Assembly: GCA_963825995.1 (NCBI GenBank)
Contig: CAWGVH010000001.1
Coordinates: 2,903 to 66,902 of the forward strand
Source: an uncultured Chloroflexia bacterium
Lineage (GTDB): Bacteria; Chloroflexota; Limnocylindria; Limnocylindrales; CSP1-4
Length of the DNA: 64,000 nucleotides
Direction of reading: 5' to 3'
In this document: positions 6,505-33,122 of the stretch, piece after piece
Layout of the letters: each line of letters opens with the position of its first letter
Numbering within the stretch: the stretch's first letter is position 1
Notes under the pieces: model-generated
Told to the model about the DNA's origin: nothing
What the model saw: only the letters and a program-made list of their open reading frames with translations
Database searches by the model: none
Position numbers and translations under genes: made by a program

Positions 6505-6552
6505 GCTGCCTGCCCCCCGGAAGACCTGCGGGACCGATGGGCTCGGCCGACG

Positions 6553-15673: not shown

Positions 15674-16672
15674 TCAGTCGCGCCGCCCGGTGAGGTCGGG
15701 CAATGGGTCGGAGATGCCGGCCAGCTTGACGACCTCATCCCAGAGCCAGCGCCGCTGGGCAGCGGACAAGCGCGTGGAGGGCAGCCGATCGAAGGGCCGC
15801 TCCCGCCGGTCGAGGAAGAGGCGCCCGCCGCCGAGACCGGCCTGGGGATGGCTGGCCAGCCAGGTGACCGTGTCGATACCCTGCGCCGGCGTGCGCAGGA
15901 GCGGGCCCACGAGACCGTAGAAGCGGGGCAGCGATTCGGCCAGGCCCGGCGTGTCCGCCCAACCCGGATGCATGGCATTGACGCGGACGCCACGACCGCG
16001 CAGCCGCCGTCCCCATTCGCGAACCAGGGCTGTGGCTGCCCGCTTCGCCCGCGCGTAGGCGAGGGTGCCGTTGTACTCGCCCCGTTCGAACTGCAGGTCG
16101 TCGAGCGGCAATGCCTGGCCATACATGCCACCTGAGACGACCGTGATGATGCGACCATCGCCGCTCGTCTCCAGCATCGGCAGCAAACCGGAGGTGAGCA
16201 CGAACGGTCCCACCACCATGGTGGCCAGTGTTGCCTCCAACCCTTCCTCAGTGACCGTGCGCGCGGCGTGGATGGCTCCGGCGTTATCGACGAGGATGTC
16301 CAGACGCCGCTCTGAGGCCTCGATCGCAGCCACGGCCTCGCGCACGCTGGCCAGGGAGGACATGTCGGCCACAACGACCGGGAAATGCCCCGCGCCACCA
16401 TACCGTTGCGCCAGCTCGGCAGCCGTGGCTGACAGGCGTTCGCGACTGCGACCGACGAGGACGACCCGGGCACCGAGCGACGCCAGCGACTCTGCGGTAG
16501 CGCGGCCCAACCCGGACGTCGGCCCGGTGACGAGGGCTGTGCGGCCGGCCAGTGCCGCGGGTTCCCCATCGAACCACCGGTAGAGGCGCCGACGAGCCTG
16601 GTAGCCGAGGCGGCTGAAGCTGCCCACGATCGTGATCTCGAGCGCGTCATCGACGAGGTAGCGCAGGTCCAT
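15674..16672 (-). CDS. short-chain dehydrogenase/reductase (SDR)
   Basis: ORF trimmed to ATG 16672. It has the TALVTGPTSGLG cofactor motif, NNAG-like DNAG, and YARAKRA (YxxxK). Confidence 0.85.
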   Translation of the reverse strand: MDLRYLVDDALEITIVGSFSRLGYQARRRLYRWFDGEPAALAGRTALVTGPTSGLGRATAESLASLGARVVLVGRSRERLSATAAELAQRYGGAGHFPVVVADMSSLASVREAVAAIEASERRLDILVDNAGAIHAARTVTEEGLEATLATMVVGPFVLTSGLLPMLETSGDGRIITVVSGGMYGQALPLDDLQFERGEYNGTLAYARAKRAATALVREWGRRLRGRGVRVNAMHPGWADTPGLAESLPRFYGLVGPLLRTPAQGIDTVTWLASHPQAGLGGGRLFLDRRERPFDRLPSTRLSAAQRRWLWDEVVKLAGISDPLPDLTGRRD

Positions 16673-16679
16673 GGGGAGG

Positions 16680-17180
16680 TCAGCCTTCGCCGGCGTCGGG
16701 ACCGGTGGCGCTGGCATCGGCCGCACTGACACCAGCACCGCTCGCGGCCAGCGCGTCCAGCTCTCGCTTCATGCCGGTCACGGCACCCTTGGCGATGCCG
16801 GCAAAGGCACGACCAAGAAGCGGCTGGATGGCCCCCAGCAGCCCGGAGAGCCTGATCTCGGCCACGTAATCGACGCGGGTACCCCCGGGTGCCTCGCTGA
16901 AGGTGATGCGGTCCTGGCTCCAGACACCGGAGCCCTCCCCGACCAGCACCACCTGGGTGGGTGCCTGATACTCGGTGATGCGGTACTCCATCGGCGTTGT
17001 CCGGGCACCCATCTTGACGTTGAGGGTGAAGCGGGCGCCGACACCCAGTTCGCCATCGTCGATGCGCCTCGATGAGGCGGTGTTGGGATCCCACTCTGCT
17101 TGGTGGGAGAAATCGGCCACATAGGCGAAGGCCGCCTCACGCGCCAGGGGGGTCGTCACGTGTTCGGTCAGCGTGGTCAT
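16680..17180 (-). CDS. SRPBCC (polyketide cyclase/dehydrase-like) family protein
   Basis: ORF trimmed to ATG 17180, which has a GGAGG RBS. The sequence is MTTLTEHVTTPLAREAAFAYVADFSHQAEWDPN... It is the first gene of a two-gene unit with the SDR. Confidence 0.75.
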   Translation of the reverse strand: MTTLTEHVTTPLAREAAFAYVADFSHQAEWDPNTASSRRIDDGELGVGARFTLNVKMGARTTPMEYRITEYQAPTQVVLVGEGSGVWSQDRITFSEAPGGTRVDYVAEIRLSGLLGAIQPLLGRAFAGIAKGAVTGMKRELDALAASGAGVSAADASATGPDAGEG

Positions 17181-17206
17181 GGTCTCAGCCTCCGATCGGG
17201 GTTGGG

Positions 17207-17246
17207 TAGACACTGTACAAACATTGTACTATCCTTCAACAGGAGG
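17207..17246. promoter_or_regulatory. candidate sigma70-type promoter (TAGACA-N17-TATCCT) overlapped by three 11-bp-phased repeats (TGTACAAACAT / TGTACTATCCT / TCAACAGGAGG); putative CarH/LitR operator
   Basis: Read directly from the sequence in the 108-bp divergent intergenic region 17181..17288. The same core CT(G/C)TACAAACATT(G/A)TAC recurs at 23742..23759. Confidence 0.45.
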
Positions 17247-17288
17247 CGTGACTGAGGCGCCCATCGCAGCGGGGGAAGGTCGAGCGTC

Positions 17289-18620
17289 ATGGACATCGCG
17301 GTCATCGGGTCAGGCATCAGTGGTCTGTCGGCAGCCTACGCCCTTCGTAACGACCACCGCGTGCGGCTCTACGAGGCCGAGCCTGAGCCGGGCGGTCACG
17401 TCAAGACCGTGAGCGTTGGCACGCCGGGTGGGCAACTCGCCGTGGATATCGGCTTCATCGTCTACAACGAGCCCACTTATCCGCGCTTCACCAGGCTGCT
17501 CGCCGAGCTGGGCGTGGAGACACAGCCAACGGAGATGTCGCTGGGTCACACCTGCCGCTCATGCAGCCTCGAGTTCAGCTCGCTCGGAGCGCGTGGCATG
17601 TTCGCGCAGCCGTCTAGCCTCCTGCAGGCCTCCCACTGGCGCATGATCGCGGACATCCGGCGCTTCTACGGCGTGGCGCGGCGCCGCCTCGACCACGACC
17701 GCTGGACGCGCGAGACCCTGGGCACCTTCCTCGACGACGGCGGCTACGGCATCGCTTTTCGCAATCACTTCCTGGTGCCGGTCGTCTCGGCTGTCTGGTC
17801 GACCTCGGCGGCCGAGATCATGGACTTCCCCGTCGACTACCTGCTTCGCTTCCTGGACAACCACGGCCTCATCGGGTTCGGGCAGAGTCATCCCTGGCGC
17901 ACCCTCAAGGGGGGCTCGAAGACCTACGTGGAGCGCATCCTGGAACGGCTGCCCGAGGGCTCGGTCCGCGCAGGCGACCCGGTGACCCGCATCCTGCGGC
18001 ACGAACAGAGTGTGACGGTGGTCACCGAGAGCGGCGCCAGCGCCCGCTTCGACGGCGTCGTCATGGCCACCCACGCGGACGTCACGCTGGCCTTGCTGGC
18101 TGATGCCGATGACGAGGAACGCGACGCCCTCGGCCTCTTCGAGTACACCATCAACGACGTCGTTCTCCATACGGACGAGACGATGCTGCCGCGTCGCGAG
18201 GGGGCGCGGGGATCCTGGAACGTGGATACCGTGGACTGCCACCGCCCTGGTCAGCAGTTGACCATGACCTACTTCATGAGCCGCCTGCAGCACCTGCCCG
18301 GAGAGACGCTCTACTGCACGTCTGTCAACCCGGGCGACCTGGTGGACCCCGCGAAGGTCATCTTGGCGCGATCCATGAGCCACCCCAAGTACACGTTCCG
18401 CACGCTGGACGGGCAGGTCGCCCTGGGCCGACTGCAGGGACATCGGCGCACCCTCTACGCCGGAGCGCACCTCGGCTATGGTTTCCACGAGGATGGCTGC
18501 CGGTCCGGCTACGAGGCTGCCGAGCGGATCGCTGGCGGCATCCTAGCGATCGCCCCCACGGGCTCTGGGGACGTCGCCGGGCCAGAGGTCGCCTCCGTCG
18601 TCCCGGCAGGCGCGGCATGA
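17289..18620 (+). CDS. FAD/NAD(P)-binding amine-oxidase-like oxidoreductase
   Basis: N-terminal dinucleotide fold [29 protein letters not shown]. It is the first gene of a translationally coupled operon with DUF1365 and a CFA-synthase-like gene. Confidence 0.85.
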
Positions 18621-19420
18621 CAGCGGTCGCCTCCAGACCGCGCTCGACAACGGAGCCACTGGCATCAGGACCGCACCCGATGCGCTCACACCTGCTGCAC
18701 GGCAAGGTCCGTCACCGGCGCTCACGACCGCTCGAGTATGAGCTCGAGCACGACGTCTTCTACCTCGCGCTTGACCTCTCCGAGATGGATGCCGCGATCG
18801 GCGGCGTGCGCCTTCTCAGCCGCAACCGCGCCAACGTGCTCACCTTCCGCGACCGCGACCACTGGCTCCCGGCAGCGACCGACCTGGCGGCCTCCGTCCA
18901 GCGGCACCTGCGCGAGGAGGGCCTCGACCCGACCGGCTGGCGCATCACCTTCATCGCCACGCCGCGCATCTTCGGCTACCAGTTCAACCCGGCCAGCTTC
19001 TACCTCTGTCGCGACAGCGAGGGTGCCCTGCGCGTCGTCATCATCGAAGTGCACAACACGCATGGCGAGCGGCGCCTCTACACGCAGCACCCGGAGCGGC
19101 ACGGTTCCGGCTGGGTCGATTCGATGGACAAGGACTTCTACGTCTCGCCCTTCATCGACATGGACGCCCGCTACAGGGTGCGGGTCCAGGACGACCCGCG
19201 GATCCTGCGCATCGCGATGTCGGAGACCGAGCACGGATCGCCCCTCCTCACCGCAAGCCTGGTGCTGCAGCGGGCACGGCTGACCGACCGGATGCTGGCG
19301 CGGCTCCTGCTGCGGATCCCCTTCGCCACGCACAAGACCATCGCGGCCATCCACCTGCACGCCTGGCGGCTGTGGCGCCGGGGCCTCCGTTTCCATCGCC
19401 ACTCTGAGGTGACCCGTTGA
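18617..19420 (+). CDS. DUF1365 family protein
   Basis: ATGA overlap with the upstream stop. [29 protein letters not shown]...[10 protein letters not shown] is the DUF1365 pattern. Confidence 0.8.
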
Positions 19421-20658
19421 CGGCTCCCACGCGCCTGGAGTGGCTGGCCGGCCCGCTCGATCCCCTCCTGACGGGCGTTTCGGGTCGCATCGGGCTGGCT
19501 GCCGCCTCGCGCATCCGCCACGGCTGCTTGACGGTGCATCTGCCGGACGGCTCGCGACGGGTCTTCGGCGACCGCGACTCCGAGTTGCGCGGCGAGATGC
19601 GCATCCACGACCTGGAGGCCCTGCGGCGCCTCTTGCTTGGGGGTGAGATCGGCGGTGGTGAGGCCTACGTGGACGGTCTCTGGTCCAGTCCCGACCTCGT
19701 GGCGCTCATCTCGCTGGCCGTGGCGAACCGGACCGACCTGGCCCTCTCCAAGGGCTGGTGGCGGGTGCCCGCCAAGGTCGGTCGGACCGTCGCCCATCGC
19801 CGCAACCGCAACACGAAGGCCGGTGCCCGGCGCAACATCACCGCCCACTACGACCTGGGCAACGACTTCTACCGGCTCTGGCTGGACGAGACCATGACCT
19901 ACTCGAGCGCGCTCTTCGAATCGCCCGAGCAGTCGCTGGCCGATGCTCAGCGCAGCAAGTACCGCCGCATGGCAGAGCTGGCTGGCCTGGAGCGTGGCCA
20001 GCACGTGCTCGAGATCGGCACCGGATGGGGCGGCTTCGCACTGTACGCGGCAGGCGAGCTGGGCTGCCGGGTCACGACCATCACCATCTCGCGATCGCAG
20101 CACGACCTGGCTCGTCAGCGTGTCACGGAGGCGGGGCTCGCGGGTCTCGTGGACGTCCAACTGCGCGACTACCGGGACCTGGAAGGCACCTACGACGCCA
20201 TCGTGTCGATCGAGATGCTGGAGGCCGTCGGCGCCGAGTACTACCGTGACTTCTTCGCGGCCTGCGGGCGAGCCCTGAAGACCGGAGGCCGCTTGAGCGT
20301 GCAGGTCATCACCTTCCCCCACGATGCCTACGAGGCGCAGCTGCGAGGCGCCAACTGGATCCAGCGCTACATCTTCCCAGGCGGCGTGCTGCCCTCCCTG
20401 GCGGCAATCGAGGCTTCCCTAGCCCACACCCAGCTGCTGGTGACCGGGGTGCACGACATCCGCGACAGCTACGCGCGCACGCTGCAGACGTGGCGGACCA
20501 GCTTCTTCGGTCACCTCGATGAGGTTCACGCCATGGGCTTCGACGACCGCTTCATCCGCATGTGGGACTACTACCTGTCCCTCAGCGAGGCAGGCTTCCG
20601 CACGGGCATGACGCAGGACCTTCAGATCGCCTTCCAGAAGCGCCGCGGCGTGGTCTGA
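19417..20658 (+). CDS. cyclopropane-fatty-acyl-phospholipid synthase family SAM-dependent methyltransferase
   Basis: TTGA overlap with the upstream stop. Motifs are HYDLGNDFYRLWLDETMTYSSALF and VLEIGTGWGGFALYAA. Confidence 0.88.
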   Translation: MTAPTRLEWLAGPLDPLLTGVSGRIGLAAASRIRHGCLTVHLPDGSRRVFGDRDSELRGEMRIHDLEALRRLLLGGEIGGGEAYVDGLWSSPDLVALISLAVANRTDLALSKGWWRVPAKVGRTVAHRRNRNTKAGARRNITAHYDLGNDFYRLWLDETMTYSSALFESPEQSLADAQRSKYRRMAELAGLERGQHVLEIGTGWGGFALYAAGELGCRVTTITISRSQHDLARQRVTEAGLAGLVDVQLRDYRDLEGTYDAIVSIEMLEAVGAEYYRDFFAACGRALKTGGRLSVQVITFPHDAYEAQLRGANWIQRYIFPGGVLPSLAAIEASLAHTQLLVTGVHDIRDSYARTLQTWRTSFFGHLDEVHAMGFDDRFIRMWDYYLSLSEAGFRTGMTQDLQIAFQKRRGVV

Positions 20659-20737
20659 GCTGGTGCAGCCGATCACGGGCGATCCGTCGACGCTGGTTCG
20701 ATCAGCCGACCCCATGGCCGGCCCTGCAGCCGTGCCG

Positions 20738-22174
20738 ATGCGCATCCTGATCGTGGGCGCCAGCGGGTACGTCGGCGGACGCCTGGCAGCACGTCTCATC
20801 GAGCGCGGCCACCACGTGCGGTTGGCCAGCCGGGATCCGCGGGGTCTGGCTGACCGCTTCCCGACGGCAGAGGTCGTCCGCCTCGATCTCCTGGACCCGG
20901 CAACCCTGCCGGCTGCCCTCGAGGGTGTCGAGCTGGCCTACTACCTGGCCCACTCCATGGCCGGTGGCGAGGCCGGCTTCGAACAGCGCGACCTTGCCGC
21001 CGCCCGCGCGTTCGCACGCTCCGCGCATGAGGCTGGCGTGGGCCACGTCGTCTACCTGGGCGGGCTGGGTGACCCCTCCAGGGAGCTCTCCCCGCACCTC
21101 ACCAGTCGCCAGCGGGTCGGGGCAGAGCTGGCCGCCCATGGCGTGCCGGTGACCGAGTTCCGGGCCGCCATCATCATCGGCTCGGGCAGCGCCTCCTTCG
21201 AGCTGTTGCGCAGCCTCGTGGAGCACCTGCCGGTGATGATCACGCCGCGCTGGGTGCGGACGCTATGCCAGCCCATCGCCGTCCGTGACGTACTCGACTT
21301 CCTCGTGGGAGCGGCCGGTCATCCGGAGCGCGCGGGCATCGTCGAGATCGGCGGGCCGGATGTGCTCTCCTACGCCGAGATGATGCAGACGTACGCGCGC
21401 CTGCGGGGCATGCGCCGTCTCATGATCCCGGTCCCGGTGCTCACGCCTCGGCTCAGCTCCTACTGGTGCAACCTGGTCACACCCGTCCCCGCCTCGATCG
21501 CGCGGCCACTCATCGAGGGACTCCGCAACGAGGTGGTCGTGCGCGAGCCCGGGCCTGCGGTAGCCTTCGGCATCGAGGCCACGCCCTTCGAGCTGGCCGT
21601 GCGGCGCGCCATCGAGCGTACCGACGGCCACGACATCGAGACCACCTGGTTCGATTCGATGGGCGTGCCCGGTCGGCCGGACCTGACCGAGGTGGGGTCA
21701 CGCGAGGGCATGATCGTGGACCGCCAGCGCCGCTCGGTCCATGCCAGTGCCACCGTGACCTTCGCCGAGATCGAGCGCCTCGGTGGGACCAGCGGCTGGC
21801 CGTTCGCCAACCTGCTCTGGGCGGCCCGCGGTCTGCTCGACCGCACCGTCGGTGGGCCCGGCATGCGCCTGGGTCGTCGGGACCCTGATCATGTCCGCGT
21901 CGGCGATGCTGTCGACTTCTGGCGCGTGGAGGCGGTGCGCTGGCCCGAGCTGCTGCGTCTCCGTGCCGAGATGAAGGTCCCCGGTCGCGCCTGGCTGCAG
22001 TACGAGGTGACCGAGTCAGCTGCAGGCAGCCTCATCACCCAGACCGCCTTCTTCGAGCCAAAGGGTCTCAGCGGCCGGCTCTACTGGTACCTCCTGCTGC
22101 CCGCGCACTGGCTGATCTTCCGCGGCTCCATCCGCAAGCTGGTGCAACGCGCCGAGCGAGCCGAGCGTCTCTGA
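20738..22174 (+). CDS. NAD(P)H-binding (atypical SDR/NmrA-like) protein with DUF2867-like C-terminal domain
   Basis: MRILIVGASGYVGGRLAARL Rossmann motif. The start could also be ATG 20714 or GTG 20663. Confidence 0.75.
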   Translation: MRILIVGASGYVGGRLAARLIERGHHVRLASRDPRGLADRFPTAEVVRLDLLDPATLPAALEGVELAYYLAHSMAGGEAGFEQRDLAAARAFARSAHEAGVGHVVYLGGLGDPSRELSPHLTSRQRVGAELAAHGVPVTEFRAAIIIGSGSASFELLRSLVEHLPVMITPRWVRTLCQPIAVRDVLDFLVGAAGHPERAGIVEIGGPDVLSYAEMMQTYARLRGMRRLMIPVPVLTPRLSSYWCNLVTPVPASIARPLIEGLRNEVVVREPGPAVAFGIEATPFELAVRRAIERTDGHDIETTWFDSMGVPGRPDLTEVGSREGMIVDRQRRSVHASATVTFAEIERLGGTSGWPFANLLWAARGLLDRTVGGPGMRLGRRDPDHVRVGDAVDFWRVEAVRWPELLRLRAEMKVPGRAWLQYEVTESAAGSLITQTAFFEPKGLSGRLYWYLLLPAHWLIFRGSIRKLVQRAERAERL

Positions 22175-22189
22175 CGCAGCGTCGGGTCC

Positions 22190-23623
22190 TCAAACGTCGG
22201 CACCCTCCCCGGCCCCGGCGGCCGTGACCGACCGGAAGGCAGCCAGGGCGCGCTCGCGCCCGGCCTGCAAGTCCACGATGGGCCGAGGGTAGGAACCACC
22301 GAGGTGGACGCCCGCCTCCGCGGACACAGCGGCAGACATCTCCCAGGGCGCGTGGATGTGGCGTGCCGGGACCTTCCCCAGCTCGGGCACCCAGCGGCGC
22401 ACCCAGTCACCATCAGGATCGAAGCGCTGCCCTTGCAGGACCGGGTTGAAGATGCGGAACCATGGCTGCGGGTCTGCGCCCACGCCCGCCGTCCACTGCC
22501 AGCCACCTCTGTTGTTCGCGACATCGCCATCGATCAGGTGCCCCATGAAGTGACGCTCGCCGACGCGGTAGTCCATGAGCAGGTGCCGGGTCAGGAAGGA
22601 GGCCACCACCAGGCGGGCCCGGTTGCCCAACCACGAGGTCGCCGCCAGCTGGCGCATGCCGGCATCCACGGCCGGGATGCCCGTGCGTCCTTCGCGCCAG
22701 GCAGCGACCGCCTCGGGGTCCTCCCGCTCTGAACGAAAGACGGCCATGAAGGGGCTATCAGCCGCGGGGTCGACGGCCGCGCGTCGATGGAAGAGCAGGT
22801 GATGGTAGAACTCCCGCCAGGCGACCTGGCGCACGAACGGCTGGGCCGTCTCGCCGACCTCAAGGGCGGCGCTCTCGACCTGGAGCGGCGAGAGCGTGCC
22901 GAGGTGGAGGTCGGGCCCCAGCCGCGACGTGGCCTGGCCGTCAAGGCCGTCACGGCCGCGACCGTAACCGGAGAGCCCTTCGAGCACCCAGGTCCGGAGG
23001 CGCTCCTGGGCGGCCGATTCGCCCGCCTCGGGCGTGCCGGGATATGGTGCCTCGCGATCAGCCAGCGCAGCCGTGACCGCCATCGACCCAGCCACGAGGT
23101 GCGCCGGGGTGTGGATGGCTCCGATGGCTGGCAGCAGTGGCCGCCGGGCGGCCTGCTGCAGCGCTCGCCAGAACGGCGTGAAGACGCCGTACGGCCGGCC
23201 AGAGGCGGTGAGCATGGACTCAGGCTCGGCCAGCAGCAGACCGGGCTGCAGCTGGAGGCGACGGCCGTCGCGCTCGAGCGCGGCAGCCACGGCCTGGTCA
23301 CGTCGATGGCTGAAGGGCGTGACGTCCCGGGTCGCCAGGATGACGGCAGCGCCGGCCTCATGCGCCAGCCTCGGCACGACCTCCTCGGGGCGACCGGTAC
23401 GCAGGAGCAGGCCGCTGCCACGCACCCGCAGGGAGGCGTCGAGCTCGGCGAGCGTGCGCATCAGGAACCACGTCCGTGCCGGCGCGGACGTGGAAGCGTC
23501 CAGGAGTCGCTCATCGAGCACAAAGAGCGGGATCACGGCGCGCCCTCCAGCCACCGCCATGCTCAGGGCCGGATGGTCCCTGATCCGCAGGTCGCGCCGA
23601 AACCAGACGATGGCGGTGTCCAT
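22190..23623 (-). CDS. phr: deoxyribodipyrimidine photolyase (CPD photolyase/cryptochrome family)
   Basis: ORF trimmed to ATG 23623, which has a GGAGG RBS. Motifs are MDTAIVWFRRDLRIRDHPAL, TSRLGPDLHLGTLSP, WREFY, GWQWTAGVGAD and RIFNPVLQ. Confidence 0.9.
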   Translation of the reverse strand: MDTAIVWFRRDLRIRDHPALSMAVAGGRAVIPLFVLDERLLDASTSAPARTWFLMRTLAELDASLRVRGSGLLLRTGRPEEVVPRLAHEAGAAVILATRDVTPFSHRRDQAVAAALERDGRRLQLQPGLLLAEPESMLTASGRPYGVFTPFWRALQQAARRPLLPAIGAIHTPAHLVAGSMAVTAALADREAPYPGTPEAGESAAQERLRTWVLEGLSGYGRGRDGLDGQATSRLGPDLHLGTLSPLQVESAALEVGETAQPFVRQVAWREFYHHLLFHRRAAVDPAADSPFMAVFRSEREDPEAVAAWREGRTGIPAVDAGMRQLAATSWLGNRARLVVASFLTRHLLMDYRVGERHFMGHLIDGDVANNRGGWQWTAGVGADPQPWFRIFNPVLQGQRFDPDGDWVRRWVPELGKVPARHIHAPWEMSAAVSAEAGVHLGGSYPRPIVDLQAGRERALAAFRSVTAAGAGEGADV

Positions 23624-23673
23624 GCTCTCCTCCACCCTGCTCCTCTGGTCGATGTCTTGGTCGGCGCTCCAGA

Positions 23674-23760
23674 ACCCTGTACAGCCGCCAAGAACATTGT
23701 ACAAGTGGTTGACACCTGAGGGTGATATCCGTATCCTGAAACTCTACAAACATTATACAC
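23674..23760. promoter_or_regulatory. divergent phr / SRPBCC-epimerase control region: promoter TTGACA-N17-TATCCT plus five TGTACA/ACA repeat units; putative CarH/LitR operators
   Basis: Repeat units are CTGTACA (23677), AACATTGTACAAGTGGTTGACAC (23693..23715, two units 11 bp apart) and CTCTACAAACATTATACAC (23742..23760, two units 11 bp apart). The -35 is at 23709..23714 and the -10 at 23732..23737. Confidence 0.45.
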
Positions 23761-25215
23761 ATGGGATCCGAGGCGATGACGAAACACACGCTGGACAGCA
23801 CCCACATCGTGAAGGCGGACCTGGAGCGCGTGTGGGATTTCTTCTCCCGTGCCCGCAACCTGGGACGCATCACCCCCCGCTCGATGGGCTTCGACATTCA
23901 CACGCCCGACCCGGTGACGGAGACCGGCGCCGTCATCGATTACACGGTGCGGCCGCTGTTCGGCATCCCCACCCACTGGCAGACGCACATCGATGAGGTG
24001 GAAGCTCCCCTGCGCTTCCGCGACGTGCAGGCCAAGGGCCCCTACAGGTCGTGGGTCCACGAACACCGCTTCACTCCTGTCACGGACGGGGTCCGCATGG
24101 ACGACCACGTCGAGTACGAGCTGCCCCTCGGGCCGCTCGGCACCCTGGGACACCGTCTCGTGGTGCGGGCCCAGCTCGAGCACGTCTTCGCCTTTCGTGC
24201 CACGGCCATCGACCAGATCTTTGAGCCGGCCGGCGACCGGGCGAACGGGCGACCGGGTACCATCGCCGTCGCCGGCGGGACAGGTTTCGTGGGTGGTGAG
24301 ATCGCCCGTGAGCTCCGCCGCCGCGGGCGGCACGTCGTCGTCCTCTCCTCTCGGGGCGAGGGTGCCCGCGGGCAGTTGCCGGACGACATCGAACTGCGGT
24401 CGGCCGACGTCCGCGACCCCGCAGGCCTGGGCGCCGCGCTGGAGGGCGTGGATGAGCTGGTCATCTCACTGGCCTTCCCTGGCCTACCGGTCGAGCAGCC
24501 CAGCAAGGGCTACACCTTCATGGAGGTCGATGCCGGCGGCACGCAGCGGCTCATCGCAGCCGGCCGGCAGGCTGGCGTCCGCCGCGTGGTCTACCTCTCG
24601 GGTGCGGGTGCTGGTCACGACGCCCAGCGTCACTGGTTCCGCGCCAAGGCCGTGGCGGAGGACGCCGTGCGCGGCTCAGGGATGGCCTGGACGATCCTGC
24701 GACCAACTTGGGTCTATGGCTCCGGCGACGTCTCGCTCAACCGCTTCCTCGGGTTCACACGCTCCCTGCCCTTCGTGCCTCTCACGAATCTGGGCCGCCA
24801 GCTGCTGGCCCCGGTCTTCGTCGGCGACGTGGCTCGCCTGGCGGCGGATTCACTGGAGCAGGATGCTGCCGTCGAGCAGGTCTTCGAGGTCGGTGGCCCG
24901 GAGGCCATGTCCATGCGCGAGGTCATCGGACGGGCCATGAGCGTGGCGGGCCTTCACAAGCCCCTCATCCCCGGCCCCGCTCCACTCCTCAAGATGGCCG
25001 CCTGGCCCATGCGCTTCCTGCCGAACCCGCCCCTGAGCCCTGACGCGGTGGATTTCGTCAACCAGCCGGCCACCGTGGACATCGAGCCCCTCTTGCGATC
25101 CATGCCGCGCACGCTCACGCCACTGGAGGCCGGCCTGGCGACGTACCTGGGCCCGCGGCACACCTCGACCACGATCATCGACGGACTCACGGAGGGTGTG
25201 CGGACGCCCGCCTGA
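23761..25215 (+). CDS. fusion protein: N-terminal SRPBCC domain + NAD-dependent epimerase/dehydratase (atypical SDR) domain
   Basis: N-terminal sequence is HIVKADLERVWDFFSRARNLGRITP...YRSWVHEHRF. It is followed by IAVAGGTGFVGGEIAREL and a Rossmann-type domain. Confidence 0.8.
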   Translation: MGSEAMTKHTLDSTHIVKADLERVWDFFSRARNLGRITPRSMGFDIHTPDPVTETGAVIDYTVRPLFGIPTHWQTHIDEVEAPLRFRDVQAKGPYRSWVHEHRFTPVTDGVRMDDHVEYELPLGPLGTLGHRLVVRAQLEHVFAFRATAIDQIFEPAGDRANGRPGTIAVAGGTGFVGGEIARELRRRGRHVVVLSSRGEGARGQLPDDIELRSADVRDPAGLGAALEGVDELVISLAFPGLPVEQPSKGYTFMEVDAGGTQRLIAAGRQAGVRRVVYLSGAGAGHDAQRHWFRAKAVAEDAVRGSGMAWTILRPTWVYGSGDVSLNRFLGFTRSLPFVPLTNLGRQLLAPVFVGDVARLAADSLEQDAAVEQVFEVGGPEAMSMREVIGRAMSVAGLHKPLIPGPAPLLKMAAWPMRFLPNPPLSPDAVDFVNQPATVDIEPLLRSMPRTLTPLEAGLATYLGPRHTSTTIIDGLTEGVRTPA

Positions 25216-25243
25216 CGGTGCGCCTGTAGCCGGACACGACGCC

Positions 25244-27520
25244 ATGGTCGAGAGGCGCATCCCCCACGACGACGTGCCGCACATCCACGGCGGCACGATC
25301 CGCATCGCATCGGCGCCCCGCTGGCTACGTCAGCCTGCGACACGGTCTTTCGGGCTGGCCTCGTCGCTCGACGCTGTGCGGCGCGCTCCGACCATCCTGT
25401 CCGCTATCCGTCTCGCCCCGCAGGTCCGCGATGCAGCCGGCGCCGCCCTCCGTGCTGGCACCCGTCCGGCGCTCCTCCTGGAGCCGCTCGAGGAGGCCAT
25501 CCGGGACGCCAGCGACACGGTCACGGCCGTGGCCGCCATCCACGCCCTGGGGGAGGTCCCGGGCCGCCTCGCCGAGCGCGAGATGGCCCAGATGCTGAGC
25601 GAGGGCGTGAACGGCTTCGACGCCCACGCCGCCTGGACCGCGAGCCTGCGGCCGGCGTCGCCCGCGCTCATCGAGCCACTCACCAAGACCGTTGCACGCG
25701 GTGGCCTGGCCGGCATGCACGCCCAGCATGCCCTGGCCCGTTGGGCGAGCCAGGACGCCGGCATCGCGTCGGCTGTCCTGGTCGCCCTCGACACGGCGCT
25801 CCGGGAGACAGGCGTCGCGACCGCGCGCCGCTACCTCGCCGAGGTCGCTGGCCTCGTGCCCGGTCCCGTCGGCCGACGACTCCTGGAGCGGCTGGCCACC
25901 GATGCCTCGGAAGCGTCGGCCGTGCGAGTCGAGGCTGTCGCTTCGCTGGGTGACCGGGTCGGCGAGCGGCTGCCGCCGAGCGTCACGTCCCTGGCCTCGC
26001 AGGGCGGCCCCATCGGAGAGGCGGTTCGACAGGCGCGGGCACGGCAGGTGCTGGGGCGCCGCGGCCCGCGCCGCAGCCACACCCGCGAAGACGGCCTGAA
26101 GATCGCCCAGGTCCACCTCGGCGCCGTCCTGGACGCCGAGGCGACTCGCGCCGGTGTGGGTGATGCTGGTGGCGTTGCCACGCTGCTGCCGAGGCTGGGG
26201 GCAGCGCTGGCGGCAGAGCCGCACATCCACGAGATCATCAGCGTCGGCCGGGCGCTGCCCGGCGTGCCGGCGCGAACGCGGCTGCACGAGCAGCCCACGA
26301 TGGGCGGCCACTGCTTCGAGAACGTGGCCCTGGAAGAAGGCGAGGGTGCCACCTTCGCGGGTGACTGGCCCTCGCTCGTGGCGGCCGAGCGCGGCATTCG
26401 CGCCGCCTTGCTGGCATCAGGCACGCCGGACGTCCTCCACCTGCGCATTGCTGACCCGGGCAGCCTGGCCGCAGCACGTGTGGCCCACGAACTCGGCATC
26501 CCGACCGTCTTCACGCTCGCTCCTGATCCGCACGGTCCCATCGCGGCCGCCGAGCGCCGGGGCACACTCGACCGTCGGACCTTCGGGACGGAGGACGCGC
26601 GGTCGGCACTCTGGTATCGCGTCGGCCTCGTGGCACGGTTTGCCCACGAGGCCCGCGAGTTGGTCCTCTTCCCGCGACCCGACCTGCCGCGACAGCTCGC
26701 CGAGCTGGTGGGCATCGACCTGGCTGCCGGGCCGCCTCGTCACACCATCGTGGCCGAGGGCGTGGATACCCAGCAGGCCGACGAAGCTGCGGCAGCACGT
26801 GCGGCCGGCACGAGCGCAGCCGTCCTGGACGACCTGGTGCGGGCCATCGAGCGCCTGCCTGAGGAACGGCAGGGGCTGCCCATCGTCGTGAGCGTCGGCC
26901 GGCTCCACGACGTCAAGGGCATGGCCCGCATCGTCGAGGCCATCGCCCGCGACCCATCGCTCGGCGCGGGGGCGAACCTCGTCCTCGTCGGCGGCGACCT
27001 CGACCATCCAAATGCCGGTGAAGCGGCCGAGCTGGCGCGCATCAACGTGCTCTTCCACAGGCATGCCGGCCTCAGCGATCGGGTGATCCTGCTCGGACAC
27101 CGTCGGCACGCCGAGGCTGGCCTGCTCCTCGCGGTCGCGAGGCACGGCTGGGGCGACTGGGTCGCGCCTGGTGGCGCCTACGTCTGTGGCAGTCCCAAGG
27201 AGGAGTTCGGGCTCGCCATCCTGGAGGCCATGGCCGCGGGCCTGCCCGTCGTGGCGCCGCTGACTGGCGGCCCTGCCACCTACATCGAGCCCGGGGTCAC
27301 CGGCGCGTTGGTGGACACGACCGACCCGCGTGCCATCGCTGCCGGCATCCACGAGGCGCTGCACCTTGCCGCGGATCCGGCGACCGGCGAGCGCACCCGG
27401 TCCGTCGTGGACGCGCGCTTCACCCTCAGCCGGATGGCCCACACGCTGGCCGCTGTCTACCGCATCGCGGCCGGCGCCAGCACGCTGGCCCTGACCGTGG
27501 AGGAAGGCCGGGCGGCGTGA
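25244..27520 (+). CDS. HEAT-repeat N-terminal region fused to a GT4-family (GT-B) glycosyltransferase
   Basis: The C-terminal half carries VVSVGRLHDVKG...LVLVGG...GSPKEEFGLAILEAMAAGLPVVAP..GGPATYIEPGVTG, the glycos_transf_1 signature. Start chosen at ATG 25244, just after the upstream stop. Confidence 0.75.
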   Translation: MVERRIPHDDVPHIHGGTIRIASAPRWLRQPATRSFGLASSLDAVRRAPTILSAIRLAPQVRDAAGAALRAGTRPALLLEPLEEAIRDASDTVTAVAAIHALGEVPGRLAEREMAQMLSEGVNGFDAHAAWTASLRPASPALIEPLTKTVARGGLAGMHAQHALARWASQDAGIASAVLVALDTALRETGVATARRYLAEVAGLVPGPVGRRLLERLATDASEASAVRVEAVASLGDRVGERLPPSVTSLASQGGPIGEAVRQARARQVLGRRGPRRSHTREDGLKIAQVHLGAVLDAEATRAGVGDAGGVATLLPRLGAALAAEPHIHEIISVGRALPGVPARTRLHEQPTMGGHCFENVALEEGEGATFAGDWPSLVAAERGIRAALLASGTPDVLHLRIADPGSLAAARVAHELGIPTVFTLAPDPHGPIAAAERRGTLDRRTFGTEDARSALWYRVGLVARFAHEARELVLFPRPDLPRQLAELVGIDLAAGPPRHTIVAEGVDTQQADEAAAARAAGTSAAVLDDLVRAIERLPEERQGLPIVVSVGRLHDVKGMARIVEAIARDPSLGAGANLVLVGGDLDHPNAGEAAELARINVLFHRHAGLSDRVILLGHRRHAEAGLLLAVARHGWGDWVAPGGAYVCGSPKEEFGLAILEAMAAGLPVVAPLTGGPATYIEPGVTGALVDTTDPRAIAAGIHEALHLAADPATGERTRSVVDARFTLSRMAHTLAAVYRIAAGASTLALTVEEGRAA

Positions 27521-28884
27521 CCCTGTTGGTCGTCAGCCCCGACTACGTCTCACACGCCATCCCGCTGCTCACCATCGCGGAAGCCTGGGCCGCCAAGGGC
27601 GAGCGGGTCGTGGTGGCCACAGGGCCGGCCATCGCCCCGATCGTCGAGGGGGCCGGCTTCGAGCACGCTGAGCTCATCATGTCGCGTGGGTCTAACGCGG
27701 GCGCCGCCGTGGCCGAGCGAGGATCGCGCGCCGAGGCACGCTCACTGGACGCCTTCTTCATGGCCACTCGCCGAGGCATGCTCCAGACCCTGCGCTTCCA
27801 GGCGGAGGCTCGCGCCATCGACCTGCTGTGGCAGCCGCAGCTCGTGGCCCGAAGGACGATCCGCATCGTAGAGCGCGTGCGCCCCGACGCCATCCTTGTG
27901 GACCACCTTGCCTTCGCGGCCACGATCGGCCTGCGGGCCATGGGCGTGCCGTACGCAGATGTCGTCGTCGGCCACCCAACGGCACTGCCCGTCGGCGCGG
28001 AGGTCTATGGCGTGCCATCGGCGTGGCCGTCCGCCATCACAGCCGACCAGGTCCAGCTCGCGACGCTGCGGGCCATCGCCCGCGGGGTCAGCGAGGCCTT
28101 TGGCGATGCCTACGATCGCGTCCTGCGCTCGCTGGCGCCGGGGACCGAGCCTGTCGGCGATGCCTTCGCCGCCCACGGGGACCTGGTCCTCTACGCCTAC
28201 CCCGAGGATCTGCACGAGGCGACGCGATCGGCACTCCTGCCGCGACACGCCTTCCTGGGCAGTGCCGTCCGCCACGAACCGCCCGACGACGAAGCGGCGG
28301 CCTGGCTGGCATGCGCCGATGGACGACCACTGGTGGTCGTATCCCTCGGCACCTTCCTCTCTGCGCGCAGCGACGTCCTGGCGCGGGTCGCCGCAGCACT
28401 GCGCAAGGTCGAGGCACGCGTGGCAATCGCCATCGGCGCCAACGACCCCGGGATCATCGGTCCGCTCCCCTTGGACTGGCTCGTGCGTGCCAGCCTGCCG
28501 CAGGTGGCGCTGCTGGGGCATGCCTCCCTGCTCGTGACGCACGGCGGCAACAACAGCGTGACGGAGGCCCTCACTCACGGCGTGCCGCTGTTGGTCATGC
28601 CCTTCTCGAGCGACCAGTTCGACGGTGCCGCGGCCATCGAACGGCATCTGGCCGGTGTGGCGCTGGACCCGAACCGCGCCAGCCGGCCACTCATCGCCGG
28701 GAGCGTCCGCGGCCTGCTCCAGTCCCCACCGACGACGCCCGGACGCATCAGCGAGAGGCTCCGGGCGCTGCCAGGCTCTGAGATCGCCTATGCGGCGCTG
28801 TCTGGAGGCGGCCATCTCGCGCCCCACCCGACCCCCACGGCGACACCCACGGCGAGAAGCAGCGTCGTGACGACCTCCGCCTGA
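27517..28884 (+). CDS. GT1-family UDP-glycosyltransferase (MGT/CrtX-like)
   Basis: GTGA overlap with the upstream stop. The C-terminal motif is LLVTHGGNNSVTEALTHGVPLLVMPFSSDQF. Confidence 0.8.
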   Translation: MTLLVVSPDYVSHAIPLLTIAEAWAAKGERVVVATGPAIAPIVEGAGFEHAELIMSRGSNAGAAVAERGSRAEARSLDAFFMATRRGMLQTLRFQAEARAIDLLWQPQLVARRTIRIVERVRPDAILVDHLAFAATIGLRAMGVPYADVVVGHPTALPVGAEVYGVPSAWPSAITADQVQLATLRAIARGVSEAFGDAYDRVLRSLAPGTEPVGDAFAAHGDLVLYAYPEDLHEATRSALLPRHAFLGSAVRHEPPDDEAAAWLACADGRPLVVVSLGTFLSARSDVLARVAAALRKVEARVAIAIGANDPGIIGPLPLDWLVRASLPQVALLGHASLLVTHGGNNSVTEALTHGVPLLVMPFSSDQFDGAAAIERHLAGVALDPNRASRPLIAGSVRGLLQSPPTTPGRISERLRALPGSEIAYAALSGGGHLAPHPTPTATPTARSSVVTTSA

Positions 28885-28955
28885 CGGAGCTCTCAGGGAC
28901 ACCGGGGCGCTGGACCGCCCTGCCCTGACCATCCACCAGGGCCACGGGAATCGAG

Positions 28956-28983
28956 CGAGCCGGCCCCCGAAGGGACCGGCTCG
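28956..28983. terminator. GC-rich hairpin between convergent genes (possible bidirectional terminator)
   Basis: GAGCCGGCCC-CGAA-GGGACCGGCTC: an 11-bp stem with 1 mismatch and a tetraloop. There is no clear U-tract. Confidence 0.3.
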
Positions 28984-29012
28984 ATCGGCAGGGGGAGAGG
29001 GTGGAGGAGCGG

Positions 29013-29579
29013 TCAGCTCAGAGAGGGCGGCAGCATGACCTTCTGGATGACGTGGATGATGCCCTGGTCGCTGGCGCGGATGTCCGTGGCCAGGATGACC
29101 GCGTCGTCGATGCGCAGCTTGCCACCGCGATCGGTGATGGCGGCCTTGTCGCCGTTGAGCATCTCGACCTTGGAGCCGAGTGCAGCGGTGGCCGTCTTGG
29201 CGTTCACCTTGCCGTCGACGACGTGGTAGGCCAGGATGTCGAGCAGGACGCCCTCACCCAGAAGGCTGTCGACGCTGCAGACGTTGCTGGGGTTGAGGCC
29301 GGCCTTGCCAAGGCCGAGGGCATCGCCCAGGCGGCGGAAGGCCGCATCGGTCGGGGCGAAGAGCGTCTTGTCCGGAGAGGACAGCACGTCCACCACGGCA
29401 CCATCGAGGTAGTCGCAGGTGGCAGCGGTCAGGAGCGTGTCGTAGTTGCCGGTTCGGCTGTTCACGGCGATGGCCTTGTCCACGATCGTCGTGCCGGGGG
29501 CGGCCGAGGCGGCGGCCGGGATGATGGCCGTCACGGAGAGGGCGGCCAGCATCGCGCCAGCCATGATCTTCTTCAACAT
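29013..29579 (-). CDS. secreted fasciclin (FAS1) domain protein
   Basis: ORF trimmed to ATG 29579, which has a GGAGG RBS. It has a signal peptide (MLKKIMAGAMLAALSVTAIIPAAASA) and the motifs TLFAPTDAAF and ILAYHVV..G. Confidence 0.85.
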   Translation of the reverse strand: MLKKIMAGAMLAALSVTAIIPAAASAAPGTTIVDKAIAVNSRTGNYDTLLTAATCDYLDGAVVDVLSSPDKTLFAPTDAAFRRLGDALGLGKAGLNPSNVCSVDSLLGEGVLLDILAYHVVDGKVNAKTATAALGSKVEMLNGDKAAITDRGGKLRIDDAVILATDIRASDQGIIHVIQKVMLPPSLS

Positions 29580-29675
29580 CAGGGGTTCCTCCTTGTGGTA
29601 GTCCGTGTCAGTGCTTGAGGTGGACGGAGGCTTGGGAGCGGATGGAAGATCGTCCCCCAAGCCTCCAGTCGTGGC

Positions 29676-30983
29676 CTAGTTGGCCGACGCGTCCTCGACG
29701 AGGATCACGTTGAACGAGCCACCGCTGAGCTGGCCAATGGCCATGGCGCTGTAGCTCTTGCCGGCCTCGAGCGTGAGGGGTTCGATGTCGAAGGCGGCCT
29801 TCTTGGCGCCGGCGGGACGGACCTCGAGGTCGTACTCACCCGCGGGAACGGTGGCGTAGCCCTTGGCCTTGCCGTACTTGAGGTTCTTGAAGATGGCGTC
29901 CTTGACAGCGCTGCCGTCAGGGGCCACGTCGACCTTGGGCGCGTCGGCGCTCAGGTGCACGACGCGGATCTGGGCCTGGTCGGCGACCGGGGCCGGCTTG
30001 TCCGCGACGATGACCGGGGTGATGTTGGCGAGCTCGTTGGTGGCCGCGACGGTCGTCAGGGTGCCGCCCTCGAAGGTGAGCGGGGCATCGATGACCACGG
30101 GGCCCTCCTCGAGCGAAGCGCCCGCGGGAACGACCTGGATCTGATAGGTGCCGGCCGGCACGAAGAGGTAGTCGGAGATGGCGCCGAAGGGGACGTCCGT
30201 GAGGATGGCCCCGCCGTTGGCGTAGACATCGACGTTCGGAGCGTCGGCCGAGAAGTGACCGACACGCACGCCCGCCAGGGCGGCATCGACGGCCGGCACG
30301 ACCGTGAAGCTGCCGTCCTCGAGGCCGCCGACGGCGAACACGGAGTAGCTCGTGCCGGCGTCGAGGGTGACCTCGGGGATGTCGAAGGCGACGGTGTCCG
30401 TACCCGCGGCGCGGATCTCCAGATCGTAGGCGCCAGCCGGCAGGTCGACGTAGCCGGTGTTGTCAGGGAAGGCCAGGCCCTCGATGAGGGCAGCCTCGCC
30501 GTCAGGGGCGATGTCGACGGCCGGGGCGTCGAAGCTGAAGTGGACGACGCGGACCTGGGTGCCATCGGCGTTGGGAGCGGGGGCGTCGGCCAGGACCTGC
30601 GGGATGATCGCGGTGGCAAGGCTGCCGGTGGCGGCCACGGTGGTCATGGTGCCGGCATCGAAGGTGAGGGGTGCGTCGATGACGACGGGGCCCTCCTCCA
30701 GCGTGGCGCCGCTCGGCACGACCTGGATCTGGTACTCGCCACCGGGGACCTCGAGATAGTCCGTGATGCTGGCGTACTCGAGGCCCTCGACGACGAGGTT
30801 GCCGCCGGCGTACACATCGACGGCCGGGGCATCGCCCGCGCCGTGGAGGACGCGAACCTTGGCCATCGCATCGGCCATCTCGTCCTGGGCGCCGACCGCG
30901 GTCGGGACGACGGCTGCGGCCGAGAGGGCAGCAGCGATACCGATGAGCGCGATCTTGCGCCCTCGGGTGGTTGGCTGAGACAT
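29676..30983 (-). CDS. secreted DUF4397 protein (internally duplicated, four DUF4397-like modules)
   Basis: ORF trimmed to ATG 30983, which has an AGGAAG RBS. It has a signal peptide. Four VR(V/G)(L/V)H..(A/F)DAP.VD(V/I) motifs mark four modules that alternate between two types. The matching segments VVPSGATLEEGPVVIDAPLTFDAG and VVPAGASLEEGPVVIDAPLTFEGG lie in the first and third modules. Confidence 0.8.
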   Translation of the reverse strand: MSQPTTRGRKIALIGIAAALSAAAVVPTAVGAQDEMADAMAKVRVLHGAGDAPAVDVYAGGNLVVEGLEYASITDYLEVPGGEYQIQVVPSGATLEEGPVVIDAPLTFDAGTMTTVAATGSLATAIIPQVLADAPAPNADGTQVRVVHFSFDAPAVDIAPDGEAALIEGLAFPDNTGYVDLPAGAYDLEIRAAGTDTVAFDIPEVTLDAGTSYSVFAVGGLEDGSFTVVPAVDAALAGVRVGHFSADAPNVDVYANGGAILTDVPFGAISDYLFVPAGTYQIQVVPAGASLEEGPVVIDAPLTFEGGTLTTVAATNELANITPVIVADKPAPVADQAQIRVVHLSADAPKVDVAPDGSAVKDAIFKNLKYGKAKGYATVPAGEYDLEVRPAGAKKAAFDIEPLTLEAGKSYSAMAIGQLSGGSFNVILVEDASAN

Positions 30984-31090
30984 CTGGGTGACTTCCTTTC
31001 GGGTTGCGACGGTCAAAGATGTGGAGCGGGCCGGCAGTGGCAAGGGGAAGCGCACTGCCGACCCGGTTGGATCAGTGAAGGTTGGCTGGG

Positions 31091-31840: not shown

Positions 31841-32047
31841 GGTTCGTTCCTTTCCATGAGTGTTGGTCACTGATGTGAGCCTGTGGCTCGAAGCGGCGAG
31901 CCTGGAGGCCCACCGGCGGGGCGGTCGAGGCGCGCTGCGCCCCTTGCGTGGGCCCCTAGCGGGACCACCTGTCGGTCATGTCGTTGTCTCCTCGCTCTGC
32001 TCTCCTGTTCAAGGTCTGTTGACCTGATGGAGCAGACGATACCCGTG

Positions 32048-32080
32048 GTGTCCATACCTTGTCAAGTGTTTGTCTGACCT
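32048..32080. promoter_or_regulatory. weak candidate operator: three TGT (ACA on the minus strand) triplets phased at 11 bp upstream of the CarH/LitR gene
   Basis: TGT occurs at 32049, 32060 and 32071 (GTGTCCATACC TTGTCAAGTGT TTGTCTGACCT), within the 285-bp intergenic region 31841..32125. Confidence 0.25.
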
Positions 32081-32125
32081 TTTCAGCGTGCGGCTGTCAC
32101 ACAGGCGTGATATGGTCAACAAAGC

Positions 32126-33043: not shown

Positions 33044-33122
33044 GCTGCCCGGACGGGGTCATCGACACCCAGATAGGACGGGGAGCACAGAACATGAGCA
33101 GGAGCAGCCACTCGCTGCGTGC

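Follow-up and report, generated by a model that had tools for sequence, protein, structure and literature searches.

Phased 11-bp repeats between photolyase and SRPBCC-epimerase genes as probable operators of a CarH/LitR-type repressor in an uncultured Chloroflexota

Positions 23674-23760 of a 64-kb stretch of DNA (70% G+C) from an uncultured soil Chloroflexota (the window, to which all coordinates refer) lie in the intergenic region 23624-23775, between a photolyase gene (phr) and a divergent operon that opens with an SRPBCC-NAD(P) epimerase/dehydratase fusion (the SRPBCC-epimerase operon). This region carries five 11-bp units with a T-n-n-A-C-A core, grouped 1 + 2 + 2, and these are very probably the operator sites of a CarH/LitR-type repressor encoded at 32126-33043, with repression in the dark and release in the light. 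The assignment follows from the statistical excess of the sites, their conserved footprint, their locus specificity, their consensus and orientation, the regulator gene, the families of the target genes, and the precedent of a similar two-site layout for PmlR2 of Pseudomonas mendocina. On this reading the case is genuine but unremarkable, one more instance of a light switch already known, found here in an uncultured soil lineage of the Chloroflexota. The elements of the region are these:

23674-23684, plus strand: unit e1, ACCCTGTACAG, core TGTACA at 23678-23683, on the phr side of the region
23694-23715, plus strand: pair e2, ACATTGTACAA (23694) and GTGGTTGACAC (23705), cores TGTACA (23698) and TTGACA (23709)
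23732-23737, plus strand: -10 box TATCCT, separated by 17 bp from the -35 box of the same promoter (SRPBCC-epimerase operon)
23739-23760, plus strand: pair e3, AAACTCTACAA (23739) and ACATTATACAC (23750), cores TCTACA (23743) and TATACA (23754)

The 11-mers that a first-pass annotation had quoted at 23739, 23750, 23694 and 23705, and its CTGTACA at 23677, are all present where it placed them. A consensus promoter scan of the region recovered a single sigma-70-like site, TTGACA-N17-TATCCT (23709-23737), which is the promoter (23709/23732) that the same annotation had described as sharing its -10 hexamer and spacing with a site at 17207/17230. The second core of e2, TTGACA, doubles as the -35 box of this promoter, and the e3 cores begin 5 bp downstream of its -10 box and span about +1 to +17. 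The SRPBCC-epimerase open reading frame (ORF) had been listed from 23761, the position also taken for the operon start in the first-pass annotation. An in-frame ATG at 23776 has GAGG before it and is most likely the true start, since the N-terminus that it gives, MTKH(T/I)L, is conserved in most relatives; the e3 pair therefore falls in the +1/5' untranslated region (5' UTR). On the phr side, ATTGTA, an invariant part of e2, is TACAAT when read from the minus strand and is no more than a candidate -10 box for phr. Its use as such would put the start of phr transcription near 23689 and e1 at about +6 to +11; e1 probably sits just downstream of the phr start.

The excess of such units in the window is pronounced. 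A strict hit was defined as two units N4-T-N2-ACA-N in tandem, a rule in which T stands at position 5 and ACA at positions 8-10 as in the published CarH repeat. Counting both strands, the window has five strict hits where 0.21 are expected (no more than 2 in any of 200 dinucleotide shuffles), an enrichment of approximately 25-fold. All five are intergenic: the phr region has two, and the other three precede the gene at 32126. A relaxed rule, which allows two hexamers 11 bp apart with at most two mismatches to TGTACA in total, gave four hits (17214, 23698, 23743 and 32116), again all intergenic, and added only the site at 17214, hereafter part of site A. Single TGTACA hexamers are not significantly enriched in the window (4 versus 2 expected); the signal lies in the phasing of the hexamers and not in the hexamers themselves. 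In all pairs and triples, successive cores are 11 bp apart. Pooling of 84 units gave the consensus acnnTgTACAa, with 1.9, 1.9, 1.8 and 1.8 bits of information at T5, A8, C9 and A10, respectively; the two positions in between hold only 0.7 and 1.1 bits. The direct repeat established by experiment for CarH is 5'-nnnnTnnACAn-3' and overlaps -35 or -10 boxes (PMC9304148); by sequence comparison the 11-mer consensus equals it. The units here also overlap promoter boxes, with a TTGACA -35 box inside the units at 23709 and 32065, site A on the spacer and -10 box, and e3 on +1. The asymmetric cores (TTGACA, TGGACA, TCAACA and TGAACA) share one orientation within each group, and head-to-tail recognition of direct repeats is therefore favored over a palindrome-binding dimer. 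TGTACA itself is self-complementary, and the e3 pair and site A alone cannot tell direct from inverted repeats.

Conservation was followed with a photolyase-based scan, one genome per species, which gave 80 loci. Twenty of them are syntenic and come from uncultured Chloroflexota metagenome-assembled genomes (MAGs) of soil and freshwater, some labelled Chloroflexia or Candidatus Limnocylindrales; the other 60 are non-syntenic. The photolyases of the 20 syntenic relatives are 60-88% identical to that of the window, and the whole gene order from the short-chain dehydrogenase (SDR) gene to carH is kept. Conservation upstream of phr in relatives, on which the first-pass annotation had staked its proposal, is indeed found: the repeats are kept in the 20 related genomes, with a constant placement against the -35 and -10 boxes. 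In an alignment of the phr region from 21 genomes (A1), the mean column identity is 50%, with spacer and flanks free to vary. No variation is seen in TTGACA, in the T/TACA of the first core or in most of TACAAAC..TGTACA; identity is 90% or more in TA...T and the other core columns, and also in most columns flanking the e2 cores. The architecture that is kept reads TGTACA-N5-TTGACA-N17-TAnnnT-N5/6-TGTACA-N5-TGTACA. All 21 genomes have TTGACA, TAnnnT 17-18 bp later, and a pair of hexamers spaced by 11 bp a further 3-6 bp on; in 20 of the 21, TTGACA is preceded at exactly 11 bp by a (T/A)-rich TGTACA-type core. Most genomes have 45-46 bp between the first pair and the second, within a range of 43-47. 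The e1 unit is looser, with a core of at least 5/6 matches in 15/21 genomes and a variable distance of 19-26 bp from e2. The two n positions of TnnACA account for most of the variation of e3 among relatives.

The sites are also specific to their loci. Within 416 kb of syntenic sequence, 95/95 strict tandem hits fall in the phr and carH intergenic regions, and the relaxed scan further picks up site A and only one hit outside these regions. The 60 non-syntenic phr loci (1.05 Mb; Acidobacteriota, Proteobacteria, Bacteroidota, other Chloroflexota and more) gave only three relaxed hits, and a scan of these loci over spacings N3-N15, including N5 and N12, found no near-perfect hexamer pair resembling the sites of the window. 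Judging from these loci, the CarH-repeat overlay is specific to this Chloroflexota clade and the underlying gene association is widespread. In Alphaproteobacteria and Flavobacteriia, AmOx-DUF1365-CFAS genes come directly after phr. In Acidobacteriota, phr neighbors an SRPBCC protein whose homologue in the window is the N-terminal domain of the fusion at 23776. CarH and TGTACA repeats are absent from these alphaproteobacterial, flavobacterial and acidobacterial loci (L028, L039, L058, L069, L071, L074, L080; L030, L037, L043 and others).

The second operator region of the window lies 6.5 kb away, by the reckoning of the first-pass annotation:

17210-17242, plus strand: site A, three contiguous 11-bp units, ACACTGTACAA, ACATTGTACTA and TCCTTCAACAG

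Site A (within 17207-17242) overlaps the promoter TAGACA-N17-TATCCT (17207-17235) of an operon with UfaD/UfaO-like genes and faces a divergent SRPBCC-SDR gene pair; this promoter is the one sigma-70-like site that the consensus scan found in the site A region. Its units cover the spacer, the -10 box and +1, unlike the pairs of the phr region, which flank their promoter at -35 and +1. The layout TnnACA-N5-TGTAC(C/T)-N5-TnnACA, that is, direct repeat, pseudo-repeat, direct repeat (DR1-dr2-DR3), is kept in 18/20 genomes. The middle pseudo-repeat always ends in C or T and is fused to the -10 box TAC(C/T)AT. Beside this, the upstream part of site A has been remodelled in the window and its three closest relatives: over 17202-17235 the wider clade has TTGCGT-N17-TACCAT, and in the remodelled version the best promoter is TAGAC(A/G)-N17-TATCCT, with the repeats unmoved.

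The likeness between site A and e3 had been presented as an 18-bp element with two differences. It is real and beyond chance, as GTACAANNNTTGTAC with at most two mismatches occurs in the 64 kb only at 17215 and 23744 (0.05 expected; none of 100 shuffles reached two). The count needs correction. The 17-mers CTCTACAAACATTATAC (23742-23758) and CTGTACAAACATTGTAC (17213-17229) differ at 2/17 positions, and the 18th base differs as well (A versus T), which gives 3/18 over the span first proposed. Likewise, the shared TATCCT hexamer is identical in the two promoters, but its value as evidence for a regulon does not hold: it is clade-specific and lies outside the conserved element. Among relatives, the -10 hexamer at the phr region varies (TATCCT, TACCAT, TAGTAT and others), and the identical TATCCT occurs in the closest relatives only. 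What the two regions do share is the same phased ACA repeat family on similar promoters, which is conserved in 20 relatives and has the CarH consensus. Nor are the regions truly unlinked, as had been stated; as neighboring control regions they belong to one conserved island of approximately 18 kb (15674-33890) with three bidirectional operator regions, the third of which stands next to the regulator gene:

32005-32133, no single strand: third operator region, between DUF4397/fasciclin genes and carH, where the 255-bp intergenic region is 31871-32125

On the minus strand, units at 32080-32048 comprise a pseudo-repeat, a TTGACA-containing unit (32065-32060) and a TGGACA unit (dr-DR-DR). The promoter TTGACA-N18-TATCGT (32065-32036; -10 box 32041-32036) points into the DUF4397/fasciclin genes, and a further minus-strand pair (32026-32005) stands downstream of its -10 box. 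On the plus strand, the pair TCAACA (32116) and TGTACA (32127) overlaps the extended -10 box, the transcription start and the start codon (32126) of carH, and this position implies autoregulation of carH. The extended -10 box, TGATATGGT (32108-32116), ends only 9 nt before the ATG, without a Shine-Dalgarno sequence, and the carH mRNA is probably leaderless or almost so. In an alignment of the carH upstream region from 15 genomes (A2), the cores are invariant or nearly so and the extended -10/ATG arrangement is also kept in all 15.

The gene itself is:

32126-33043, plus strand: carH/litR-type regulator of 305 aa with MerR helix-turn-helix, B12-binding_2 and B12-binding domains, 8.4 kb from the phr region

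Residues 2-64 match MerR_1 of Pfam (E = 2.9e-13) and align with the DNA-binding domain of Thermus thermophilus CarH (TtCarH). B12-binding_2 follows (E = 6.3e-11), a four-helix bundle with W146-x9-EH, in which WTEGRLDVAAEH at residue 146 aligns to WHRGEIGVAEEH of TtCarH (Wx9EH). The Wx9EH motif of CarH caps the upper axial 5'-deoxyadenosyl group, and the lower axial histidine comes from the E/DxHxxG loop. Wx9EH is found in each of the 11 copies that could be read through position 146, that of the window among them; the four copies without it end earlier. The Rossmann-type B12-binding domain (E = 1.6e-8) contains RHELG, whose His-Glu-Leu-Gly aligns with His-Glu-Ile-Gly of TtCarH, and the axial His with its Gly is conserved in all full-length orthologues. 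Residues 2-285 match the TtCarH structures 5C8D (E = 1.4e-30) and 3WHP (E = 9.7e-31), and the best NCBIfam model is TransRegCarH, "HTH-type transcriptional repressor CarH". Pfam scans of the other large ORFs of the window gave no second candidate regulator, and the CarH-type gene is the only transcription factor of the conserved island. A regulator of the kind implied by the repeat pattern of the first-pass annotation is thus encoded 8.4 kb from the phr region, in the same conserved island, and has sites of its own. A search of the window against Rfam found no cobalamin riboswitch; only an FMN riboswitch and a tRNA were matched. As a side observation, the carH frames in four MAGs (L004, L014, L020 and L023) stop after 40-137 codons and tblastn finds the remainder; these breaks are probably assembly indel errors rather than pseudogenes.

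A mechanism can be proposed by analogy with known CarH proteins (PMC9304148). In the dark, an adenosylcobalamin-bound CarH oligomer would bind the tandem 11-bp T-n-n-A-C-A direct repeats. At the e2 pair it would occlude the -35 box of the SRPBCC-epimerase/glycosyltransferase operon together with the probable -10 region of the divergent phr promoter, and at the e3 pair the transcription start of the SRPBCC-epimerase operon. With e1 just past the probable phr start, RNA polymerase would be kept off both divergent promoters. One oligomer may bridge the two pairs of the phr region, or each pair may be bound separately. Light would photolyse the cofactor, destroying its upper ligand; the oligomer would dissociate and lose DNA binding, and all promoters would be freed, among them those of phr and the epimerase operon, which would be switched on. 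The CarH-type protein probably also controls the UfaD/UfaO-like operon and the SRPBCC-SDR pair through site A, and the DUF4397/fasciclin operon and its own gene through 32005-32133. Together these genes appear to form one light-response island of approximately 18 kb with six transcription units. The common regulon of photoprotection genes that the first-pass annotation had suggested thus gains support from the conservation of the repeats, the CarH consensus, and a CarH-type gene with repeats of its own.

Several observations weigh against this proposal. The consensus scan found no minus-strand promoter for phr in 23624-23775 and none for the SRPBCC-SDR pair at site A, and control of both is proposed from their proximity to the sites. 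In the window, e3 is the most degenerate pair of the repeat family (TCTACA, TATACA), with T-n-n-A-C-A kept. The 3-4 contiguous repeats of the two CarH operators with known structures are not seen at the phr region (1 + 2 + 2, with gaps of 19-26 and 45-46 bp), although they are present at site A (DR-dr-DR) and at 32048-32080 (dr-DR-DR), and the 45-46 bp between the two pairs is slightly off an exact multiple of 11. In the cobalamin loop (32690-32710, residues about 187-195), EGRHELG stands against GERHEIG of Thermus, with the acidic residue displaced by one position, and the strict [ED]xHxxG is present in none of the CarH copies of the relatives that were read. Finally, four public RNA-type runs over 22900-25300 yielded short, unoriented contigs of related strains, without start sites or a light/dark contrast, and the promoters are neither confirmed nor refuted by them.

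Comparison with characterized systems places the window sites closest to class I CarH. The CarH (LitR) of T. thermophilus (5C8D/5C8E/3WHP) has the domain order, full-length similarity, Wx9EH motif and axial His of the 305-aa protein, and its carH-crtB operator consists of 11-bp repeats nnnnTnnACAn, one of which contains the -35 box, as is the case here (PMC9304148). That operator has three tandem repeats and the Bacillus megaterium CarH operator has four (PMC9304148); site A, with three contiguous units, resembles the former. The differences are an identity of about 45% or lower, the Chloroflexota host and the shifted acidic residue of ExHxxG. The Thermus operator is not split, whereas the repeats of the phr region fall into pairs on both sides of the promoter, with a mostly palindromic TGTACA core. 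The targets differ as well: photolyase, lipid-modifying, glycosyltransferase and surface-protein genes, with no carotenoid genes in the window. The operators of B. megaterium and of myxobacteria (Cystobacter, Sorangium and Haliangium) mix 11-bp repeats with pseudo-repeats over -35 or -10 boxes, as seen here; some serve two divergent promoters, as is proposed here, and in Myxococcus TTGACA lies inside a repeat, as it does here. They form contiguous blocks of 3-5 units upstream of carotenoid genes, in contrast to the phr-region pairs, which are 45-46 bp apart and bracket the promoter.

The class II LitR proteins of Pseudomonas (PplR1 of P. putida and PmlR2 of P. mendocina) also recognize the hexamer TGTACA, and the PmlR2 footprint has one site on the -35 box and a second between transcription start and start codon (PMC9758184), a layout that the phr region resembles. 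Their regulon contains phrB, an SDR, an FAD-dependent oxidoreductase and the furan-fatty-acid gene ufaM (PMC9758184). The Pseudomonas sites, T(G/A)TACA, are spaced by N12, whereas those of the window are spaced by N5 throughout. Class II LitR does not function as a B12 photoreceptor and is switched by LOV proteins; the 305-aa protein, unlike class II LitR, carries the class I B12 signatures. This comparison bears on the alternative that the operators are real but are read by another protein encoded outside the window, either a TGTACA-palindrome dimer or a B12-independent paralogue of LitR/CarA type. The self-complementary TGTACA does allow the e3 pair and site A to be read as inverted repeats, a class II LitR for which B12 is not the chromophore recognizes the same hexamer (PMC9758184), and the visible sequence amounts to 64 kb of the genome. 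We consider this alternative unlikely. The spacing is N5 (an 11-bp period) and not the N12 of class II, the asymmetric cores stand in direct orientation, and the consensus equals the class I CarH repeat; moreover, the sole transcription factor of the island is the CarH-type gene, whose synteny with the sites is kept and which has sites of its own.

It is also improbable that CarH binds these sites and works in some other way, by repression that is independent of B12 and light (as in CarA), with a required partner, or as an activator at some promoters. The shifted acidic residue of the E/DxHxxG motif and the split 2 + 2 layout, unlike the operators of Thermus and Bacillus, would be in agreement with an atypical protein, and the oligomer state and operator design of CarH are reported to show plasticity (PMC9304148). 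Opposed to this are Wx9EH, the axial His and its Gly, conserved in all full-length orthologues, and the overlap of the sites with -35, -10 and +1, positions that are typical of repression.

A very remote alternative takes e3 as an RNA element, with a UGUACA-N5-UGUACA hairpin in the 5' UTR of the epimerase operon that affects stability or translation; two self-complementary hexamers 5 nt apart in a transcribed leader can indeed pair. Units of the same family also occupy non-transcribed positions (-35 boxes and promoter spacers), and the n positions of the protein-binding consensus take up most of the variation. Variant cores occur in eight genomes: in six of these, one or two base pairs of the hairpin are lost, and compensatory changes are absent from all eight. 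In the window 2/6 pairs are broken, and the hairpin was rejected. Equally far-fetched is a chance likeness of promoter DNA, which is AT-richer in this 70% G+C genome (lone TGTACA hexamers are not in significant excess in the window), or a dispersed repeat or mobile element: the tandem units are enriched and confined to three intergenic regions without mobile-element features, and base-level conservation across 21 genomes while the flanks diverge refutes it.

The other genes of the island were assigned with Pfam, and in part with NCBIfam:

15674-16738, minus strand: SDR (Pfam)
16680-17180, minus strand: SRPBCC (Polyketide_cyc2) protein, divergent from site A (Pfam)
17289-18620, plus strand: FAD amine-oxidase-type desaturase, UfaD-like (Pfam)
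18617-19420, plus strand: DUF1365 protein, UfaO-like (Pfam)
19417-20658, plus strand: cyclopropane/methyl fatty-acid-synthase-like methyltransferase (Pfam)
20663-22174, plus strand: NmrA/DUF2867 protein, last gene of the operon 17289-22174 (Pfam)
22190-23623, minus strand: photolyase (phr), ATG at 23623 (Pfam DNA_photolyase and FAD_binding_7; best NCBIfam models, deoxyribodipyrimidine photo-lyase)
23776 (or 23761)-25215, plus strand: SRPBCC-NAD(P) epimerase/dehydratase fusion (Pfam, NCBIfam)
25196-27520, plus strand: GT4 glycosyltransferase (Pfam, NCBIfam)
27517-28884, plus strand: UDP-glycosyltransferase of the macrolide-GT type (Pfam, NCBIfam)
29013-29660, minus strand: fasciclin-domain protein, downstream of the 32065-32036 promoter (Pfam)
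29676-31870, minus strand: two DUF4397 repeat proteins, downstream of the 32065-32036 promoter (Pfam)
33123-33890, plus strand: MBL-fold hydrolase (Pfam, NCBIfam)

The genes at 23776-28884 probably form one operon under the 23709 promoter; their synteny, that of the SDR/SRPBCC pair and that of 29013-31870 are kept in 20 relatives. The target families (photolyase, FAD oxidoreductase, DUF1365, cyclopropane fatty acid (CFA)-synthase-like protein and SDR) also occur in LitR and singlet-oxygen regulons that have been defined by experiment (PMC9758184, PMC7380195). In Rhodobacter sphaeroides, the RSP1091-1087 operon comprises ufaD, ufaO, a 402-aa gene, RSP1088 and a 245-aa gene, and ufaD with ufaO makes a furan fatty acid that scavenges singlet oxygen (PMC7380195). 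The first three gene families of this operon of the sigma-E/ChrR regulon (FAD desaturase, DUF1365 and CFA-synthase-like) stand in the same order in the operon at 17289. The Rhodobacter regulon also has phrA, and here an SDR and a photolyase lie nearby. Control differs: in Rhodobacter it is exerted by an alternative sigma factor released by singlet oxygen, whereas here the promoters are sigma-70-like and a photoreceptor repressor is proposed. An extracytoplasmic function (ECF)-type promoter and an rpoE-chrR pair were not found in the island, where the promoters found have TTGACA/TAnnnT at 17-18 bp, and no sigma or anti-sigma family of Pfam was present among the ORFs scanned at 15674-35584.

Directly after carH, the MBL-fold protein has as its best NCBIfam match a cyclic-nucleotide-degrading phosphodiesterase, at 127 bits and below the cut-off of 400; relatives keep the pairing of carH with the MBL gene, which hints at a link between light and second messengers. 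Outside the island, an unusually large PASTA-repeat protein of 2162 aa has 26 PASTA domains (third-position G+C of the ORF, 0.93); after it comes a 747-aa ORF with eight (35655-44353, minus strand), and a PASTA Ser/Thr kinase is encoded at 4699-6552 (minus strand). An FMN riboswitch (RF00050, 75.5 bits; 49488-49636, plus strand) precedes an ABC ATPase ORF (49575-50537) and a permease (50468-51412); the ATPase probably starts further downstream than the listed 49575, because the listed ORF overlaps the riboswitch. A tRNA-Glu gene (anticodon TTC) lies at 12521-12597 (minus strand).

We also entertain, tentatively and as a doubtful extension, a broader version of the CarH proposal. In it, CarH would use a binding mode so far undescribed, with half-operators of two repeats, set approximately four helical turns apart, on either side of a promoter (at -35 and +1) and perhaps one tetramer that bridges them; the palindromic TGTACA cores would let one region silence two divergent promoters; and the regulon would extend to envelope glycosyltransferases, DUF4397/fasciclin surface proteins and a putative cyclic-nucleotide phosphodiesterase cotranscribed with carH. 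If this were true, both the surface of a non-phototrophic soil bacterium and its second-messenger signalling would be remodelled by light.

A resemblance between two intergenic regions thus becomes a complete and testable regulatory map, with three operator regions and one putative B12 photoreceptor gene over approximately 18 kb. To specialists it extends the CarH/LitR family in an expected way and is no surprise. The lineage has no cultured representative among the genomes retrieved, and the window sequence occurs in soil and wetland metagenomes (public DNA and RNA-type runs). The map predicts that these non-phototrophic soil and wetland Chloroflexota, a lineage without an earlier described light response, sense light through vitamin B12. 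The predicted response would comprise DNA photorepair and genes for furan-type or methylated fatty acids, together with genes of unknown role, and it would provide a functional context for the SRPBCC-epimerase fusion, the glycosyltransferases and the DUF4397/fasciclin proteins.

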